Position numbers and translations under genes: made by a program. A stretch of DNA of 64,000 nucleotides from an uncultured Planctomycetota bacterium (lineage in GTDB: Bacteria; Planctomycetota; Phycisphaerae; Tepidisphaerales; Tepidisphaeraceae): positions 1,600,001 to 1,664,000 of the forward strand of contig CAWJEN010000006.1 in NCBI GenBank assembly GCA_963841915.1, read 5' to 3'. Below, piece by piece: positions 13,183 to 48,069 of this stretch (its first letter is position 1; the number at the start of each line of letters is the position of its first letter). The notes beneath the pieces were generated by a model that made no database searches, was not told the origin of the DNA, and worked only from the letters and a program-made list of their open reading frames with translations.

Positions 13183-14601
13183 ATGGACGCCCCGACTACT
13201 TCACCCGCCGGCCGACCCAATGTCCTGCTGATTCACAGCGATCAGCACCGCTTCGACTGCGTCGGCGTCAACCAGCCGCACACACCCGCCGGGCCGGGTA
13301 GGCTCGTCAAGACGCCCCACCTGGATCGTCTGGCCCAGCAGGGGACGAACTTCACGAGCGCTTACACGCCGATCCCGCTGTGCACGCCGGCCCGGGCGTC
13401 GCTGTCGACAGGTAGCTGGCCGAGTCGGCACAACAGCTGGGTCATTCCCAATACACTCGGCTACCGACCGGCCGACGGGTCGCTGCCGAACCTGTACCGG
13501 TTGTTGAGCGACGCCGGCTACTACGTGGCACATCTGGCCAAGTATCACCAGGAACTGGCCGGTACGCCGACGGATCACGGGGCTGACCGTTTTGAGCCGG
13601 AGACGGCGTACGACCCGTGGCGAGAGCAGCAGGGCTTGCCACCGCGGCCGATGACGAACGGGTTCTTCGGTGAGGTCGACGACATCGAGCCTGAGCAAGG
13701 CCGCATCGCCTGGGGTGCCGACCACACGATGGCTGCGCTGCGCGAGGCCAAGGCTGCGGGGCGGCCTGCGTTTGTGCGGTGGGATCCGAGCGAGCCGCAC
13801 CTGCCGAACGTGATTCCCGAGCCGTGGGCGTCGATGGTGGATCCGGGTGACGTGCCGCCTTGGGCGAGCTTTGCCGACACGCTCAAGAACAAGCCGATCA
13901 TGCAGCGAAAGACGCGGCAGCGGTGGGGCTGCGACGACTGGACGTGGGCTGACTGGCAGCCGATCGTGGCGCGGTATCTGGGTGAGGTGATGTTGCTCGA
14001 TCACCACGTCGGCCGCGTGCTGGCGACGCTGGACGAACTCGGCATGGCTGACGACACGCTCGTCATCTACAGCACCGATCACGGCGACTTCTGCGGCGGG
14101 CACGGCATGACGGACAAGCACTACACGGGCTACGACGACATTCTGCACGTGCCGCTCATCGCCCGCTGGCCCGGCCACCTGGAGGCGGGGGCAACGTGCG
14201 ACCGGTTCGTGATTCACGAGCTCGACCTCGCCAGGACGATCATCGATGCCGTTTTAGGCGAAGCGCCAGAGACCTTCGCCGGCCGCAATCTGATCGACGA
14301 AGCAGCCGGCACGTCGGCGGAGCGGGACGACGTTTTCGTGCAGTACTCCGGCACGCAGCAGGGCCGGTGCGACCAGCGGTACCTGCGGACGCGGCGGTGG
14401 AAGTACGTCTACTGCCCGACAAGCGAAGACGAGCTGTACGACCTTGACGCTGACCCGGGCGAGTTGGTGAACGTGATCGACGAGCCGCAGCACTCGGGGG
14501 CGTTGCTCGAGGTTCGCCAGCGGATGATGACGTGGCTGGCCGAGACGGGTGATCCGCTGACGGGGCCGCTGTGGACGTGGCCGGCGCGGATTCAGCCGTA
14601 G
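13183..14601 (+). CDS. Sulfatase (S1, Cys-type)
   Basis: RPNVLLIHSDQHR, CTPARASL, STDHGD, ELYDLDADPGE. Confidence 0.92.
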   Translation: MDAPTTSPAGRPNVLLIHSDQHRFDCVGVNQPHTPAGPGRLVKTPHLDRLAQQGTNFTSAYTPIPLCTPARASLSTGSWPSRHNSWVIPNTLGYRPADGSLPNLYRLLSDAGYYVAHLAKYHQELAGTPTDHGADRFEPETAYDPWREQQGLPPRPMTNGFFGEVDDIEPEQGRIAWGADHTMAALREAKAAGRPAFVRWDPSEPHLPNVIPEPWASMVDPGDVPPWASFADTLKNKPIMQRKTRQRWGCDDWTWADWQPIVARYLGEVMLLDHHVGRVLATLDELGMADDTLVIYSTDHGDFCGGHGMTDKHYTGYDDILHVPLIARWPGHLEAGATCDRFVIHELDLARTIIDAVLGEAPETFAGRNLIDEAAGTSAERDDVFVQYSGTQQGRCDQRYLRTRRWKYVYCPTSEDELYDLDADPGELVNVIDEPQHSGALLEVRQRMMTWLAETGDPLTGPLWTWPARIQP

Positions 14602-14663
14602 CGGGTAGTGGACGGTGGCGTCCGAACAGAGTCCTAACTAGCATGGTGGCAGCCGAGCCTGCC

Positions 14664-17600
14664 ATGCCAGACGAGTCGCAACCAAAGTCCAAGATACACC
14701 CGTTCAAGACGAAGCGTCATCACTGGACGCGGGCCAAGGAAGTCGCCGCGTCTGAGGCGAACAAGAAGACGCCCAAGTGGCAGCAGGGTTGGGGCGGCTT
14801 CAAGGACAAGAAGGGCCGGGCCAAAGAATTGCTCGAGATCTCGCCACCACCGGCGATCATCAAGGCCGGCAGCGTCGTCACGTTTGCCGAGCTGTGTTGC
14901 ACGAGCAACTTCACGTTTCTGACCGGGGCGAGTCACCCCGACGAGATCGCCCGTCGGGCGGCGGAGCTCGGCTACGACGCGTTCGGCGTGTGCGACACGA
15001 ACACGCTGGCCGGTGTAGTGCGGGCGCACGTCGAGGCCGAACGCCAGGAGATTCGCCAGGTCGTCGGTAGCCGCGTCGAGCTGTCGGACGGTCGTGGCAT
15101 TTATGTCTGGCCGACGAACCTCGCCGCGTACGGCAGGCTCGCCACACTGCTGACCGTCGGCAAGATGCGGGCCAGCAAGGGCGAGTGCTTGCTTGGCCTG
15201 TGGGACTTGCTGGAGTACGCCGAGGGTCAGATGCTCGGCATCGAGGTGCCGACCGTCATCGACAATGGTTTTGTCGCGATGCTCCGCACGCTGCAGGATT
15301 GGTGCGGCGGGACGAACGCGTTGTCGCTGCTGGCTGCGCGCGACTACGGGCCTGATGACGAACAACGGCTGCGCAACATCGCGCGATTGTCGGCAGAAGA
15401 GCACGTGCCGATGCTGGCGACGAATCGGCCGCTTTATCACGTGCGAGGCAGGCGGTTGATGCAGGACGTCGTCTCGTGCATCCGTCGTGGTTGCACGCTC
15501 GACGAAGCAGGCCTGGCCCTCGAAGCGTCGGCCGAGCGGCACATGAAGGTGCCCGAAGAGATGGACCGGCTGTTCTCGCGTTACCCGAACGCGATCGCCC
15601 GCACGATTGAGGTTGCGTCGCGTTGCCGCGAGTTTTCACTGAACCAGCTCAAGTATCAGTACCCCGACGAGGTTGTGCCCGACGGCTCGACGGCAATGGA
15701 GCACCTCGAACAGCTCTCGCGGGCCGGGCTGCAAGGGCGTTTCCCCGACGGCGTGCCGGAGAAGGTGCGCACGCAGTTCGAGCACGAGTTGGTGCTCATC
15801 GGGGAGTTGAAGTTGCCGCACTATTTCCTGACGGTCGAAGACCTTGTGCGGTGGAGTCGCCAGCAGGGCATCTTGTGTCAAGGCCGCGGCGCGGCGGCGA
15901 ACAGCGTCGTCTGCTACTCGCTGGGCGTGACCGACGCCGACCCGACGCGGATCAACACGCTCTTCGAACGGTTCATCAGCCGCGCCCGCAACGAGCCGCC
16001 GGACATCGATGTCGACTTCGAACACGAACGACGCGAAGAGGCGATTCAGTACCTTTACCGCAAGTACGGCCGTGACCGGGCGGCGATGACGGCCAACGTC
16101 ATCACCTACCGCGGCAGAAGCGCCGTCCGCGAGGTTGGCAAAGTCCTCGGCTTCGGCGCCGACACCATCGACCGCCTCGCCAAAGGTATCAACTGGTGGA
16201 AAGGCGGCCCGGTCGAAGAAGACGAACTCGCCGCCCAGAAGCTCGACCACGCCGACGTTGCTACCGGGCACCTCGTCTACCTCTCGCAGGCCATCCAGGG
16301 ATTTCCCCGACACCTCAGCCAACACCCTGGCGGCTTCGTGCTGACACAAACGCCGCTGCATCAGCTCGTGCCAATCGAGAACTGCGCGATGGAAGCCCGC
16401 ACCGCCATCGAGTGGGATAAAGACGACATCGACGCCCTTGGCTTCATCAAAGTCGACGTGCTGGGGCTTGGCATGCTGACGTGTATGGCCAAGGGGTTTG
16501 AGCTATTAAAAGGCACAAAGGCACAAAGGCACGAAGGCACGAAGGGCTTGACTTCGGACACTCATGAGCGAGATCAAGACATATCGAGATCTGGTGGCGT
16601 GGCAGAGAGCTATGCAGTTGTGTCAGGCGCTTTATTGACAGACGAAGGCAATGCCGGCCGAAGAGCGTTTTGGGCTGACGAATCAGATGAGGCGTGCGGC
16701 CGTATTGATTCCGTCGAACATCGCAGAAGGATTCGGCAGGCAGAGCCGCGCCGACCACTTGAAGTTCCTGAAGATCGCACGCGGATCGTTGATGGAGCTT
16801 CAGACGCAGTACGAACTGGCGTGGTCGATGGAGATGATCCCCCGGAACGAGGAGCTGCATACATTGCTGATCGAGAGCGACCGCATTCTGCAGGGTCTCA
16901 TTCGCAGCCTGATGCGTTAGCTCCGGCATCTGCCCCTTCGTGCCCTCGTGCCTTTGTGCCTTCGTGCCTAGCCGAGGTGCTTCAGCCGCCGGACGATCCT
17001 GTGGTCTTCGACATGATTTGTCGGGCCGACACGATGGGGACGTTTCAGATCGAAAGCCGGGCGCAGATGACGATGTTGCCGAGGTTGCGGCCGCGGTGCT
17101 TTTATGACCTGGTGGTCGAGGTTGCCATCGTGCGGCCCGGGCCGATTCAGGGTGGCATGGTCCACCCCTATCTCAAGCGGCGCAGCGGCGAAGAGCCGGT
17201 GCCGGACTTTTCTGACGGGCCGCTCGGGTGGATTCTGGCCAAGACGTTCGGCGTGCCGATTTTCCAGGAGCAGGCGATGCTGATGGCCGTCCACTGCGCG
17301 GGCTTTTCACCCGACGAGGCCGACGGCCTCAGGCGTGCGGTCACCGGCTTCCGCCGCTTCGGCGACATCGACGACTACGAGTCGAAGATTGTCGAGGGCA
17401 TGGTAGAGAACGGCTACGAGCGTGACTTTGCCGAGCGGTGCTTCAAGCAAATTCAGGGGTTTTCAACCTACGGATTTCCGGAGAGCCACGCTGCCAGCTT
17501 CGCGCTGATCGCGTACGCGAGCAACTACTTCAAGTGCCACTGGCCGGGCGTCTTTCTGGCGGCCATTCTCAACAGTCAGCCGATGGGCTTTTATAAACCG

Positions 17601-18416
17601 GCCCAACTCGTGCAGTGCGCCCAACGGCACGGCGTGACCGTGCTGCCGGTCGACGTGATGCACAGTGACTGGGATTGCACGCTGCCACCGACGCAGGATC
17701 ACATGACGGTCCGGCTCGGGATGAGATGCGTCAAAGGAATGAGGCAGGACGACGCCCAGCGCATCATCGCCGCACGCGGCAAGGGCGTTGTCAGCATCGA
17801 GCAACTTTGGCACCAAAGCCGCTGCTCGGCGAGGGCGATGAAGTGTCTGGCCAAAGCCGACGCCTTCGGCTCGCTCAACGGCGGCCTCGATCGACAGTCG
17901 GCGCTGTGGCACGTGGGTAAACTCCGTGACGACGACACGCCGTTGTTCGATCACGTGCACGAGCCCGAGCCCGTCGTCGCGCTGCCGACGCTCGCGCCGC
18001 TTCGGCATGTATTGGCCGATTACACGCACACAGGTCTGTCGCTCAAGGACCACCCGATGCGATTGCTTCGTGGCGAGCTGCCGGGCGTGACGGTGGCGGG
18101 TGACCTGGCCGACGAGGAGCGGTTTCCGTCCGGTCGGAACGTGACGGTGGCCGGCATCTGCCTCGTCCGCCAAAGGCCCGGCAGCGCCAAGAGCATCACG
18201 TTCCTCACGCTCGAGGACGAGACAGGCATGAGCAACCTGGTCGTTTACCCTAATATCTTCGACCGATGGAAGCGCATCGCCCGCGACAGCCGCACCATGC
18301 TCGTCCGCGGCCGCGTTGATCGGCAGGGCGAAGTCGTGCACGTCATCGCGACGACCTTCGAGTGCCTCGACGGCAAGCTCGACGCGTTGCGTGGCATGTC
18401 GCGAAACTTCCACTAG
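14664..18416 (+). CDS. dnaE2: Error-prone DNA polymerase DnaE2 (ImuC) with a 153-codon in-frame insertion
   Basis: FAELCCTSNFTFLTGASHP, GRGAAANSVVCY, PPDIDVDFEH, FPRHLSQHPGG, FQIESRAQM, YGFPESHAASFA, RQRPGSAK and the DnaE2-typical SRNFH C-terminus; start uncertain. Confidence 0.95.
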   Translation: MPDESQPKSKIHPFKTKRHHWTRAKEVAASEANKKTPKWQQGWGGFKDKKGRAKELLEISPPPAIIKAGSVVTFAELCCTSNFTFLTGASHPDEIARRAAELGYDAFGVCDTNTLAGVVRAHVEAERQEIRQVVGSRVELSDGRGIYVWPTNLAAYGRLATLLTVGKMRASKGECLLGLWDLLEYAEGQMLGIEVPTVIDNGFVAMLRTLQDWCGGTNALSLLAARDYGPDDEQRLRNIARLSAEEHVPMLATNRPLYHVRGRRLMQDVVSCIRRGCTLDEAGLALEASAERHMKVPEEMDRLFSRYPNAIARTIEVASRCREFSLNQLKYQYPDEVVPDGSTAMEHLEQLSRAGLQGRFPDGVPEKVRTQFEHELVLIGELKLPHYFLTVEDLVRWSRQQGILCQGRGAAANSVVCYSLGVTDADPTRINTLFERFISRARNEPPDIDVDFEHERREEAIQYLYRKYGRDRAAMTANVITYRGRSAVREVGKVLGFGADTIDRLAKGINWWKGGPVEEDELAAQKLDHADVATGHLVYLSQAIQGFPRHLSQHPGGFVLTQTPLHQLVPIENCAMEARTAIEWDKDDIDALGFIKVDVLGLGMLTCMAKGFELLKGTKAQRHEGTKGLTSDTHERDQDISRSGGVAESYAVVSGALLTDEGNAGRRAFWADESDEACGRIDSVEHRRRIRQAEPRRPLEVPEDRTRIVDGASDAVRTGVVDGDDPPERGAAYIADRERPHSAGSHSQPDALAPASAPSCPRAFVPSCLAEVLQPPDDPVVFDMICRADTMGTFQIESRAQMTMLPRLRPRCFYDLVVEVAIVRPGPIQGGMVHPYLKRRSGEEPVPDFSDGPLGWILAKTFGVPIFQEQAMLMAVHCAGFSPDEADGLRRAVTGFRRFGDIDDYESKIVEGMVENGYERDFAERCFKQIQGFSTYGFPESHAASFALIAYASNYFKCHWPGVFLAAILNSQPMGFYKPAQLVQCAQRHGVTVLPVDVMHSDWDCTLPPTQDHMTVRLGMRCVKGMRQDDAQRIIAARGKGVVSIEQLWHQSRCSARAMKCLAKADAFGSLNGGLDRQSALWHVGKLRDDDTPLFDHVHEPEPVVALPTLAPLRHVLADYTHTGLSLKDHPMRLLRGELPGVTVAGDLADEERFPSGRNVTVAGICLVRQRPGSAKSITFLTLEDETGMSNLVVYPNIFDRWKRIARDSRTMLVRGRVDRQGEVVHVIATTFECLDGKLDALRGMSRNFH
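16511..16546 (+). repeat. Left octamer array (AGGCACRA)x4 + AGGG
   Basis: AGGCACAA AGGCACAA AGGCACGA AGGCACGA AGGG read directly. Confidence 0.95.
16564..16920 (+). pseudogene. Four-helix-bundle protein (TIGR02436 / 23S rRNA IVS protein family) nested in dnaE2 in another frame, with an internal TGA
   Basis: MSEIKTYRDLVAWQRAMQLCQALY*QTKAMPAEERFGLTNQMRRAAVLIPSNIAEGFGR...FLKIARGSLMELQTQ; TGA at 16636-16638. Confidence 0.9.
16934..16969 (+). repeat. Right octamer array CCCT + (TYGTGCCY)x4, inverted relative to the left array
   Basis: CCCT TCGTGCCC TCGTGCCT TTGTGCCT TCGTGCCT read directly. Confidence 0.95.
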
Positions 18417-18472
18417 CGGCTCTGACGCAAGAAGTTGCTGCCGCTCGGGCGGGCGCGGTACAACCCCAAGCG

Positions 18473-20284
18473 ATGCGGGACTCGGGGAAGATCAAGGTCT
18501 ACACGACGATGGCCGCAACGGTGTGCGCGTTGACCGCGCTGCCGCTCGGCGTGCTGGGCTACGTCGCGGCCGGTGAGTCGTTGCTCAACGGCTTCTACAT
18601 GACGCTGCAGTTCTTCGCCCTGGGCGATCCTTACCCGGACGCGGCCAAGAACTTCATGCTCCACGTCGCCCGCCTGCTGGCCGCGGCGGCGGTGTCGCTG
18701 GCGGTGGTCATGACGGTGATGTCGCTTTGTGCCGACGTCTCACGACGATACTTTGCCCAAAGCTGGCGCAACCACGACATCGTCTGCGGCCTTGGAAATC
18801 GGGGCATCAACCTTGTGCACCAACTCGCCGCGACGCATCAGTGCGAGAGTGTCAAGGACCGCATCAAGGCCGCGATGTGGGGCGACCGCGCCATCGTCGC
18901 CATCGAACGCAACGAGCAGAACCCGCACCTCCAGACGGCGAGGCGGGCGGGCGCATTGGTCATCGTCGGCGATGCGACCAACCCCAATGTGCTCCACGAC
19001 GCGGCCGTGCGATCCGCGGCTCGGCTGTTCTCGTGTTGCGGCAAGGACGACGACACCGACGTCGCCGTCACCCTGGCGGCGGTGGACGAGGCGGCGAAGT
19101 CGACGCGTACCAAGCAGCTTCACATCTGCCCGGAGATCAACGATCCGACCATCCGCACGCTCATTCGGCAGTACGCCGCCCGGCAGAAACACGAAGGGCG
19201 TTCGGTGCTCGTGCACCCTTTCGACAACAACGAGCTCTCTGCTCGACGCCTGCTCGCCGACTACCCGCTCGACCATGATCGACAGCTCGGCCTTACATCG
19301 TTCAAGCACGCCCAGCTCGTCATCATCGGATTCGGCCCGCTCGGTCAGGCGGTGCTGTTGCAGGCGATGCACGTGGGGCACTTTGCCAATCGCAGTGTGT
19401 TGCGCGTCACGCTGATCGATCCGGACATTGACACACTGTATCGCCGATTTGTGGCGGCCCATCCGAACCTCGGCCGCAGAGGGTTGCAACGGCCCGCACG
19501 CATCCGCCGCCGTGGCATGCACCCGCTGGACCCGCGGCTGTGCATGTTTCTCAACGACATCGCCGACAATCCCGAAGCAGTCGTAACCGTTGTCGTGTGC
19601 CTCGGCGTCGCAACAGAGGCGGTCCGACTGGTCGACCAGACTCGTCGTGCCACTGCGGCGGACAACGTCAGGTTGCTCGTCCGCGTTCCGAACAATCGTG
19701 GGTTCGGCCGCTTGCTTCACCCCGAAAGCGAGGCGAATCGTGAGGTGGACGGCGTCGCCTTTCCAAACGTGTACGACTTCAGCCCGGCCACTGACATCGA
19801 TCCCGCGGCCATTCGCGACGAGCATCATGACAAGCTGGCCCAGGCGATTCACCACGCATATCGCACCAGGACCACATTCGGCGAGAACCTACCCGATGCA
19901 AAGCCGCAGCAGCGGCCTTGGAACGAGCTCGACGAGATCTTTCGCATTTCCAATCGGGCGGCGGCTGACTTTGTGCCGTTACTCTGGCGGACGTTCGGCT
20001 TTGAGATCATCGCCGCAAAGTCTGCGGATCAAAGAAATCGGGTGAAGGAGGTGCCGTCGCACTTGCACGAGGTCATGGCCCAGCTCGAACACGAGCGCTG
20101 GTGCAGCGAGCGGTTCTTGTCCGGCTGGCAGCGCGACGCGGTTCGCGACGACTCGCGTCGGCGGCATCCGGATCTGGTCCCGTGGGCCACGCTCGACGCA
20201 GCGTCGAAGCAGCACAATCGGGACCAAGTCAGCTCGCACGTCACCATTCTCAGCCAGATCGGCTATGTCGTCCTCCCAGCCTGA
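18473..20284 (+). CDS. Membrane protein with TrkA-N/RCK-like NAD-binding domains and a C-terminal RyR domain
   Basis: N-terminal TM segments around FYMTLQFFALG; IVCGLGNRG and LVIIGFGPLG Rossmann motifs; RyR-type LAQAIHHAY...PWNEL and MAQLEHERW...GW...RDDSRRRHPDLVPWATL. Confidence 0.8.
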   Translation: MRDSGKIKVYTTMAATVCALTALPLGVLGYVAAGESLLNGFYMTLQFFALGDPYPDAAKNFMLHVARLLAAAAVSLAVVMTVMSLCADVSRRYFAQSWRNHDIVCGLGNRGINLVHQLAATHQCESVKDRIKAAMWGDRAIVAIERNEQNPHLQTARRAGALVIVGDATNPNVLHDAAVRSAARLFSCCGKDDDTDVAVTLAAVDEAAKSTRTKQLHICPEINDPTIRTLIRQYAARQKHEGRSVLVHPFDNNELSARRLLADYPLDHDRQLGLTSFKHAQLVIIGFGPLGQAVLLQAMHVGHFANRSVLRVTLIDPDIDTLYRRFVAAHPNLGRRGLQRPARIRRRGMHPLDPRLCMFLNDIADNPEAVVTVVVCLGVATEAVRLVDQTRRATAADNVRLLVRVPNNRGFGRLLHPESEANREVDGVAFPNVYDFSPATDIDPAAIRDEHHDKLAQAIHHAYRTRTTFGENLPDAKPQQRPWNELDEIFRISNRAAADFVPLLWRTFGFEIIAAKSADQRNRVKEVPSHLHEVMAQLEHERWCSERFLSGWQRDAVRDDSRRRHPDLVPWATLDAASKQHNRDQVSSHVTILSQIGYVVLPA

Positions 20285-20296
20285 TCGGAGACTTCC

Positions 20297-21190
20297 TTGA
20301 GCACAGCGATAGACGAAGTGGCTCGACAAGCCGCCTCCGAAGAAGCCAGGCAGGCCCTCATCAACGGGCAGCCGTACGAGGCGTTGTCGGCAATCTGCCG
20401 GGCCATCCGGCTGACGCCGCGAACGGCCCAAGGCGACGACGTCCTAGCAAGCAAAGTTGCGGCATTGAAACATTTCGCCGAGATACACCCGCAGACGCAA
20501 GGGACCATCTGGTGTCAGTGGGTCTTGACACTCGCCATTGCCGTACGCCGACTCAGCGACGGGGCGACGGACGTACCCGCCGACGTGAAGGTGCTCGCCG
20601 GCAAGCGTGTGACCGGCCCGATCATGTTTGTGGCTGGCGGTTGCGAGGATGCGCATTCTGTTGAGTGGGCACGCCTCGTCGATCTGCTCGATGGTGCGCT
20701 AGGCGACGTTGAACGCACGCTTGTGTCCGGCGGCACGAGGTCGGGCGTGAGCCAACTTGTAGGCGATCTAATCGAGCGACGCCCGCACTGCCGCCGTGGC
20801 ATGTGCTGGCTGCCGGACGAGATGCCTTCGGACGTGAGTATCGATGAGCGGTACGAGGACCGCCGGGTCAGCGAGGTCGGTGACGGTGCGTCGGGCTTTA
20901 CACCTGCCGAGCCGCTGCGATCTTGGATGACGGTGCTCGCCTCGGGAATTGCGCCGGCCGATGTGGTGCTGCTCGGCATCAACGGTGGTCGCATCTCTGG
21001 CTTCGAATACGAGCTGGCTGCCACGCTTGGCGCTCGCGTCGGACTGCTGCATCCGACGGGTCGCGCGGTGGACGCGCTGCACGCGCAGCGTCATCGCCTT
21101 GAGCAGCCGAGTGTGGAGTTTCTTCCGCTCGAACAGGCTCGAATCGCCGCCTTCGTCTCGCGTGATCAATTCGGAGTCGAGGCATCGTGA
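20297..21190 (+). CDS. SLOG-domain protein (TRPM/LSDAT-like) with helical N-terminus
   Basis: IMFVAGG, LVSGGTRSGVSQLVG, LGINGGRIS and TGRAVDAL resemble TRPM/LSDAT SLOG motifs (GGTxxGV, NGG, SGRxAD). Confidence 0.65.
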   Translation: MSTAIDEVARQAASEEARQALINGQPYEALSAICRAIRLTPRTAQGDDVLASKVAALKHFAEIHPQTQGTIWCQWVLTLAIAVRRLSDGATDVPADVKVLAGKRVTGPIMFVAGGCEDAHSVEWARLVDLLDGALGDVERTLVSGGTRSGVSQLVGDLIERRPHCRRGMCWLPDEMPSDVSIDERYEDRRVSEVGDGASGFTPAEPLRSWMTVLASGIAPADVVLLGINGGRISGFEYELAATLGARVGLLHPTGRAVDALHAQRHRLEQPSVEFLPLEQARIAAFVSRDQFGVEAS

Positions 21191-22269
21191 AGCGCATCAT
21201 CAGCATCGACGGCGGTGGCATTCGCGGCGTCTTTTCGCTGCAGATTCTGAAGCGCATCGAGCTGCTTTATCGAGAGCGACACGCCAAAGCCGATCTCGTG
21301 TTGGCGGACGTCATCGACTTCTTCGCCGGGACCAGCACCGGCGCGATTGTCGCGACATGTTTGAGTTGGGGCATGTCAGTCGACGAGGTCGAGCGGCTGT
21401 ATGTTGAAGAGGGCGGGCGCATGTTTTCAAGAGCCGGCGTGCTGGAGCGGTGGTGGTCAAAGTACCGGCCGCACGCGTTGGCGGACATGTTTCGTGAGCT
21501 GTTCCTGGAAGATGACGGTGCACCCGCTGATCTTGGCAGCGGCAAGCTGCGGACGCGACTGCTCGTCGTGATGCGAAACGCGACGACCGGTTCGCCCTGG
21601 CCGATCACGAACAATCCGGAGGCGTTGTTCAACGACGAGTCGCTGGCCGACTGCAACTTGCGGATCCCAATCTGGCAGTTGCTTCGGGGCAGCACTGCGG
21701 CACCGACTTACTTCGAACCCGAGCGCATCGTGCTCGGCAGTCAATGCTTCCTCTTCGTCGACGGCGGCGTGACGCCTTACAACAACCCGGCGATGCTGGC
21801 AGTCCTGAAGGCGACGCTGCCTTGCTACCGGATGAACTGGCCGACCGGCGTCGACAAGCTGCACGTGACCTCCGTCGGCACCGGGAGCTTTCGCAGCGTG
21901 CTCGGGAAAACCCGCGCCAGCCGCCTGCGACGCATCGGCCTTTTGGACCAGCTCAAAGTTCTTCCCAACGCGTTGCTCGGATCGGTCTCTGACCAGCAGG
22001 ACCTGATGTGCCGCGTCATGGGTAACTGCATCCACGGGCACCCGATTGACAGTGAGATCGGCGACCAAATCGAGCGAAGCGACGACGCGCCAACACGCAA
22101 GCAATTCACGTACGTCCGCTACAACCGGCGTCTTGATGTTGTAGACGCGACAACGACGCTGCCGCCGTTGCTCGACGCGACGCTCGATAACCTGGCCCTC
22201 ATTCCGCGGCTGATGGAACTCGGCCACGCGTACGCAGAAGCGTCGGTCGAGGAACGGCATCTGCTGTGA
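21187..22269 (+). CDS. Patatin-like phospholipase
   Basis: SIDGGGIRG, AGTSTG (catalytic Ser), STAAPTYF, FVDGG (catalytic Asp); 4-bp overlap with the upstream gene. Confidence 0.92.
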   Translation: MKRIISIDGGGIRGVFSLQILKRIELLYRERHAKADLVLADVIDFFAGTSTGAIVATCLSWGMSVDEVERLYVEEGGRMFSRAGVLERWWSKYRPHALADMFRELFLEDDGAPADLGSGKLRTRLLVVMRNATTGSPWPITNNPEALFNDESLADCNLRIPIWQLLRGSTAAPTYFEPERIVLGSQCFLFVDGGVTPYNNPAMLAVLKATLPCYRMNWPTGVDKLHVTSVGTGSFRSVLGKTRASRLRRIGLLDQLKVLPNALLGSVSDQQDLMCRVMGNCIHGHPIDSEIGDQIERSDDAPTRKQFTYVRYNRRLDVVDATTTLPPLLDATLDNLALIPRLMELGHAYAEASVEERHLL

Positions 22270-48011: not shown

Positions 48012-48055
48012 GCCTCCGTGCCTCCGTGCCTCCGTGCCTTCGTGCCTTCGTGCCT
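48012..48055. repeat. Orphan octamer array GCCT + (YCGTGCCT)x5, same family as the dnaE2 insertion ends
   Basis: CCGTGCCT x3 then TCGTGCCT x2 at 48016-48055; 14 bp past the stop of the minus-strand gene. Confidence 0.93.
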
Positions 48056-48069
48056 CCGGGTATCCACAC

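Follow-up and report, generated by a model that had tools for sequence, protein, structure and literature searches.

The closest described systems are the ORF-bearing intervening sequences (IVSs) of 23S rRNA in Coxiella (S23p) and Leptospira, which, in the accessible part of the source (PMC4990558), are about 440–460 nt long, are bounded by terminal inverted repeats that form a long stem, carry a PF05635 gene in the loop, have a GC content below that of the host, and are distributed sporadically. According to the same part of that source, RNase III cuts the 28-bp stem of the Coxiella IVS in vitro, and its protein is probably not made (PMC4990558). A second group comprises the Rickettsia palindromic elements (RPEs) and the intragenic REPs, which are palindromic, lie in frame and are translated with the host; in the portions of two sources that were available, genes for DnaE2, DnaE, and repair functions are listed as sites of REPs, with possible further DnaE2 cases in the intragenic REP table (PMC10969869, PMC3733652). 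In addition, PF05635 has been described as resembling the DGR accessory protein Avd (PMC10053308, available excerpt).

The locus compared here with these systems is an insert in the dnaE2 gene of an uncultured planctomycetotal bacterium, located within the window, that is, the whole stretch of 64,000 nucleotides that was analysed. The features of the window are as follows.

14664..18416, + strand: host gene dnaE2, error-prone C-family polymerase (frame open from 14571; domain searches)
16002..16016, + strand: intact D-x-D motif of the palm (sequence; alignment columns invariant)
16449..16457, + strand: intact K-x-D motif, about 18 codons 5' of the insert (invariant; aligned to solved Pol III alpha)
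16509..16970, + strand: insert in the dnaE2 frame, 154 codons, polar, predicted disordered, without known family (composition, structure prediction)
16511..16546, + strand: 5' arm, four AGGCACRA units (repeat and unit search)
16564..16920, + strand: nested four-helix-bundle gene (PF05635 / TIGR02436), broken (profile search; ATG at the second base of a host codon)
16636..16638, + strand: premature TGA at codon 25 of the nested frame, a sense change in the dnaE2 frame (sequence; in-frame ATG later at 16651)
16934..16969, + strand: 3' arm, reverse complement of the 5' arm, 34/36 paired (inverted-repeat search, RNA fold)
48012..48058, − strand: gene-less intergenic array of the same octamer type (array search; partner arm not found)

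As the earlier note had proposed, the build is IVS-like: a long stem closes off a PF05635 gene. Unlike the rRNA IVSs, the cassette lies within the protein-coding dnaE2, a second frame is kept open across it, there is no evidence of excision, and its arms are tandem octamers whose unit varies by lineage. Like the RPEs and intragenic REPs, the cassette is palindromic and sits in frame within coding DNA, but those elements measure 20–150 bp and have no gene of their own (PMC10969869, PMC3733652, in their accessible parts), whereas the cassette measures 459 nt and holds a whole, conserved, out-of-frame gene. RPEs and REPs are also multicopy, whereas this genome has one copy of the cassette, with arms built of tandem units. 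The nested protein belongs to a four-helix-bundle family homologous to Avd (PMC10053308, available excerpt); unlike in DGRs, no reverse transcriptase was found, PF00078 having 0 matches in the assembly, which is 94% complete. With the inteins and group I/II introns of replisome genes, the cassette would share the habit of a selfish passenger, as well as a DNA polymerase gene as host and a recurrent site, but it has no Hint domain and no ribozyme match, its ends are imprecise and variable, and it occupies a variable loop instead of a conserved catalytic motif. It differs from IS elements and MITEs in having no target-site duplication at its ends and PF05635 as cargo. Intein, group I/II intron, and DGR were each rejected, and the cassette lacks a defining feature of every family compared here. 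A search of the literature outside subscription journals turned up no description of a PF05635 gene lying inside another coding frame. Annotation discards long same-strand nested genes, which are considered rare in bacteria.

The dnaE2 frame runs without a stop or frameshift from 14571 to 18416 (approximately 3.8 kb), and comparison with where relatives start makes the ATG at 14664 the likely start codon. The product scores 1273 bits against the error-prone polymerase model (cut-off 939), and it retains both the D-x-D motif, which we take to be catalytic, and the K-x-D motif, presumably the site of the third catalytic aspartate. The flanks around the insert exhibit dN/dS values of 0.06–0.13 against five relatives, in the same range as other pairs. 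These values bear on the explanation that dnaE2 is a dead, non-essential gene, or the insert an assembly artefact, with a frame that is open by chance. The broken nested gene and the presence of imuA-imuB at another genome site, away from dnaE2, would fit this explanation, but the gene shows no frameshift in 3.8 kb, its catalytic motifs are intact, its flanks have the low dN/dS given above, and the chance of an open host frame over the 16564–16920 gene was estimated at only 0.008–0.013. Moreover, many independent assemblies show this architecture at the same loop, which speaks against misassembly of the insert. We therefore regard a dead gene or an artefact as highly improbable. One DNA read run (share 0.07) contained fragments of other organisms alone and no joints, and was uninformative. 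Two side observations concern the polymerases of this genome (G000): DnaE2 begins with a basic extension of about 70 residues, present genus-wide, ahead of its PHP domain (window 14664–14880), and at L357 (G000 C6:292204) there is a umuD-umuC-like pair in which the Y-family polymerase gene is broken.

For the insert itself, the 459-bp span (16511–16969) and the frame open throughout, both described in the earlier note, were confirmed, as were the 36-bp inverted repeats with two mismatches: the arms are 36 nt each, 94% complementary (34/36 paired), and enclose an outer span of 459 nt. Each arm holds about four AGGCACRA units, as claimed, except that one 3'-arm unit starts with G. Since the AGGCACRA unit contains no T, a stop is impossible in any frame of the unit. 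The RNA fold of the insert region is markedly stable (z −4.9; 0/100 shuffles equally stable), and the GC content of the insert is 57% against 64%. The absence of a target-site duplication, a transposase, or an intein motif, likewise claimed before, also held, in that no duplication is visible at the insert ends and a Pfam search of the host-frame insert peptide returned no family (no intein/Hint, no transposase). An Rfam search gave three weak matches far below the gathering scores, none inside the insert, and in a word-indexed search with the insert peptide the window's own protein was the sole match.

The alignment with dnaE2 of relatives, which the earlier note had suggested, revealed an empty allele of 108 nt in the same genus. 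Precise removal of the 459 nt keeps the dnaE2 frame, as had been stated, but does not recreate this empty site: 87 nt are left between the flanking motifs, compared to 108 nt in the same-genus empty alleles, making the loop 7 codons shorter. By this comparison, part of the original loop is replaced by the cassette, and the insertion is not clean. The ten codons 3' of the cassette are closer to those of the second G321 copy, the nearest loaded allele, than to those of the genus' empty alleles, which fits either a transfer with some flank or the retention of an older state.

The nested gene lies on the same strand as dnaE2 at an offset of one base, and its assignment to the TIGR02436 family was borne out by a PF05635 match of 111.7 bits (cut-off 33.8) with one TGA inside. 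It is the sole family member found in the 94% complete assembly. The 118-codon gene is, however, not intact as first described, because the TGA at 16636–16638 interrupts it at codon 25. This position is a sense codon in 15/15 other nested genes, all of which are intact across the aligned span. Reading TGA as a sense codon was ruled out, since TGA is the commonest stop of the genome and ends 491/877 long ORFs; the TGA at 16636 could be a single-base assembly error. Across the family, the nested frame exhibits pN 0.25 and pS 0.75 with 64% identity, as compared to 32% for the host-frame peptide, values that show purifying selection on the nested frame. Xcc0516 (2GSC) is a match to the nested proteins (E 3.7e-33), and their sequence profile gave no hit to Avd.

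In the comparison of relatives, a left-flank search matched 102/141 family genomes. The loci set comprised 90 of the listed matches, 15 from a previous search, and three obtained by other routes; after duplicate removal there were 99 loci, 93 of them measurable, and 97 were chosen by polymerase similarity. The unpublished genome G006 enters the search tallies alone, and none of the conclusions depends on it. A loaded cassette, that is, one with a PF05635 gene, was found at this loop in 15 of the 97 similarity-picked dnaE2 loci and, in addition, at L178, giving 16 in total; the remaining 82/97 were without one. The named public records with such cassettes are labelled Tepidisphaeraceae or Phycisphaerales. 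The loop at the site varies from 108 to 900 nt, with the empty sites clustering at 108–129 nt. For the inserts longer than 150 nt, 36/38 were a multiple of three (3n) and open, the two out-of-frame cases being L274, which is loaded and has intact flanks, and L279. All 16 loaded cassettes had one and the same orientation. A later search, biased toward open frames, added nine further measurable loaded cases at this loop, all open. Where relatives have a gene-less hairpin at this loop, it fits a short palindromic element. Several loci have peculiarities of their own. L272 stops at a contig edge. In L297/L188, the loaded dnaE2 has lost approximately 60 conserved codons in frame directly 3' of the 3' arm, and is probably inactive or misassembled. 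Two dnaE2 copies are present in G321 (L411 and L412, one loaded and one empty) and in G004 (one copy with a stop).

The host frame was stop-free across the nested gene in 16/16 cassettes, compared to 1.2 expected from synonymous shuffles, and for free PF05635 genes with a GC content of at least 50% the corresponding frame was open in 3/31. The other same-strand frame of these nested genes always contained stops, and, by this family comparison, the cassette lies in the sole frame offset able to remain stop-free. Because the nested genes are related to each other, the 16 cases are not fully independent. When the outermost predicted helix of at least 25 pairs was removed, this excision at the stem base restored the frame in 4/14, near the chance level, whereas the whole insert was 3n and open in 13/14 measurable loaded cases, with L274 as the exception. 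The excess of 3n lengths, for which the earlier note had proposed a test, is thus present for the whole insert and absent for the stem span. These results indicate that the whole insert must be translatable, and that it is by coincidence that the stem span here is exactly 3n.

The headline idea of the earlier note, an intron-like removal or bypass in which the mRNA would be rejoined after loss of the stem, or the ribosome would hop across it, to yield a polymerase of normal length, appealed to this exact 3n span, which keeps the frame on removal. L274, loaded and out of frame with intact flanks, and the tolerance of a cassette by the replicative DnaE1 are also consistent with it. Removal would, however, release the host frame from selection, and yet this frame is stop-free in 16/16, L274's nested gene included, and the stem span is 3n in only 4/14; removal is therefore not supported. 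The removal product would also fall 7 codons below the empty allele, no Rfam intron match was obtained, and, to our knowledge, IVS excision is not followed by ligation, which likewise counts against removal. For a bypass of the T4 gene 60 type, an in-frame stop stands directly after the take-off codon, whereas there is no such stop here and the dnaE2 frame is open throughout. We consider removal or bypass very unlikely as the main explanation; the open frame would also be compatible with partial removal in which read-through serves as a fallback.

We consider it probable that the insert is a dual-coded, IVS-like selfish cassette that is read through as a disordered surface loop, and that it is not an intron. 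The tolerated disordered loop, one of the options listed in the earlier note, is the one favoured by the open frames, the 3n lengths of the whole inserts, and the predicted disorder of the insert. On this reading, a PF05635 gene closed by two mirror-image short-repeat arrays would have come to occupy a DnaE2 loop that tolerates insertions, where the helix after the third catalytic aspartate ends. Ribosomes would read through the insert and produce a working DnaE2 with a disordered loop of approximately 150 residues, and in relatives with an intact nested gene, translation of that gene would begin at an internal start of its own. The cassette may move among dnaE2 alleles and loops by recombination via its arms or flanks, and may be lost by hairpin deletion. 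By analogy with Avd, which we take to be RNA-binding, binding of the arms by the nested protein is probable. In this genome, the nested gene appears to be dead and the remnant a tolerated passenger.

In the AlphaFold model, the insert follows a long helix, has a pLDDT below 50, and is without secondary structure; disorder-promoting residues make up 73% of the insert peptide compared to 56% of the core. The insert site aligns to a surface linker near residues 633–642 of Taq Pol III alpha, and the structure model matches Pol III alpha with a TM of 0.52. The core adjoining the insert was of low confidence, and equally so in the empty control, so that the model adds little and is no proof of folding.

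The arms were also compared across the family. The units differ among cassettes, and own-partner arms share 32.7 6-mers as compared to 11.4 with other arms (permutation p 1e-4), the own partner being the best-matching arm in 16/24 cassettes. For 9/11 units tested, no stop is possible in any frame on either strand. The gene-less hairpins of the second loop often share the unit with the loaded cassette of the same gene. The co-variation of the arms with their own partners shows that pairing is maintained, and maintained arm pairing points beyond read-through alone, to a role of the stem in movement, nested-gene expression, or RNA cleavage.

A role in cleavage would make the stem a post-transcriptional control, in which RNase III cuts without religation and destroys the dnaE2 mRNA, thereby tuning the mutagenic polymerase; the mRNA would be spared where ribosomes or the nested protein protect it, which fits read-through of the uncut message. 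The stable stem (z −4.9), the co-varying arms, and the RNase III gene present in the assembly are consistent with such control, and the host genes are mainly DNA methyltransferases and DnaE2. Precedents, as far as the accessible parts of the sources go, are the 28-bp stem of the Coxiella IVS, cleaved by RNase III in vitro (PMC4990558), and the Correia-element mRNAs cleaved at inverted repeats (PMC10969869). Unlike a conserved control element, however, the cassette is absent from 82/97 loci and its loaded alleles are scattered; in addition, the nested gene is dead here though dnaE2 is conserved, and the same cassettes are common between genes. Control by the stem is thus, in our judgement, unlikely.

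The nested genes derived from dnaE2 form one group (17/18 rows, SH-aLRT 94). On the dnaE2 tree, a quick version with 88 rows, loaded, hairpin-only, and empty alleles are interleaved, and the scatter of the loaded alleles corresponds to 9 changes against a shuffled mean of 11.3 (57/500 shuffles as low). The distances of the nested genes and of dnaE2 are weakly correlated (rho 0.32, p 0.054, n = 13; L323 left out as a long branch, and L272 and L297 lacking flanks), a value that does not separate an old presence with losses from repeated transfer. Taken with the tree, these data describe a dnaE2-associated cassette lineage with many gains or losses, between which the counts do not distinguish. 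Neither a mobility enzyme nor, among the dnaE2 neighbours scanned, a recombinase was found.

The interleaving of loaded, hairpin-only, and empty alleles, the long inverted repeats, and the one loaded and one empty dnaE2 of G321 would also be expected from a DNA-level switch, in which inversion or excision of the cassette through its arms would turn dnaE2 on or off in a fraction of the cells. For such a switch, the common orientation of 16/16 cassettes and the lack of a recombinase adjoining the gene among the neighbours scanned are adverse, and no switch is needed, since the loaded state is already open in frame. We regard it as extremely improbable.

Cassettes were also found at other loops and in other host genes. 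L098 has a loaded cassette at the loop ahead of the helix-hairpin-helix domain of DnaE2, and further loaded cassettes lie at the DnaE2 loop directly after the PHP domain. Two dnaE2 genes, L406 (G250) and L407 (G244), each carry two loaded cassettes with the host frame open across both, and in one of the G250 cassettes a stop interrupts the nested frame but not the host frame, as in the 16564–16920 gene. For the DnaE1-type gene L378 (G161:C32), a loaded, long-armed cassette lies in frame within a 1556-codon open frame; in G161 (96% complete), L378 is the sole DnaE1-type gene found, and the other C-family gene is DnaE2-like. A profile of the host-frame translation, with which open frames alone are detectable, matched 656 protein clusters at E 0.001. 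The best 150 were taken, and for the 85 longest among them Pfam identified 39 as methyltransferase-type, 8 as DnaE2, 4 as histidine kinases, 2 as Ser/Thr kinases, and 3 as others, with 29 giving none. The same cassettes are also common in intergenic positions. In a scan for the octamer-array pattern, a PF05635 gene was present at 4/80 loci examined, indicating that the arrays are mostly gene-less. As separate observations, octamer hairpins or cassettes lie in frame in coding genes at L053, L102, L046, L099, L071, L402, and L396; their hosts look, from sequence motifs alone, like purL, imuA, leuS, dnaE2, and an acetyltransferase.

A stronger proposal is that the PF05635 protein binds its own arms and homes the cassette into repeat-bearing loops of polymerases and methyltransferases, where it is hidden in a harmless frame and its stem serves as a cleavable control of the mutagenic polymerase. 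We consider this possible, though rather doubtful; if true, such cassettes would be an unrecognised class of mobile 'stealth genes'. The dual-coded cassette by itself would place a conserved gene wholly inside DNA polymerase genes, with both frames under visible selection, at about one-sixth of the dnaE2 loci of the family, and its host-frame shadow has matches in hundreds of protein clusters. It would represent a natural route to overlapping genes by insertion, not by overprinting, and would link the orphan arrays of 7–8-base units and the translated dnaE2 hairpins to a gene that may spread them. PF05635, a long-unexplained family, would gain a testable setting, and the result is a warning that many 'disordered insertions' of polymerases and methyltransferases may be hidden genes.

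Elsewhere in this genome, the cassette core does not recur, and two arrays of its unit type stand alone. These AGGCACGG-type arrays are located at window 48012–48058 (approximately 6 units) and at G000 C6:380152–380282 (approximately 16 units), the latter upstream of a parA-like gene, and neither has a partner arm or a PF05635 gene nearby. Gene-less intergenic hairpins built from other 7–8-base tandem units are located at G000 C6:1368795–1368886, 1375910–1375995, and 1385037–1385117, with more at C6 330870 and 50702 and at C5:724924; these hairpins are the empty form of the same design. Window 18362–22269 encodes a protein with TrkA_N and RyR domains, a 297-aa ORF that lacks annotation, and a patatin-like phospholipase that matches CBASS and anti-phage lipases below the cut-offs, and this region may be a defence locus.
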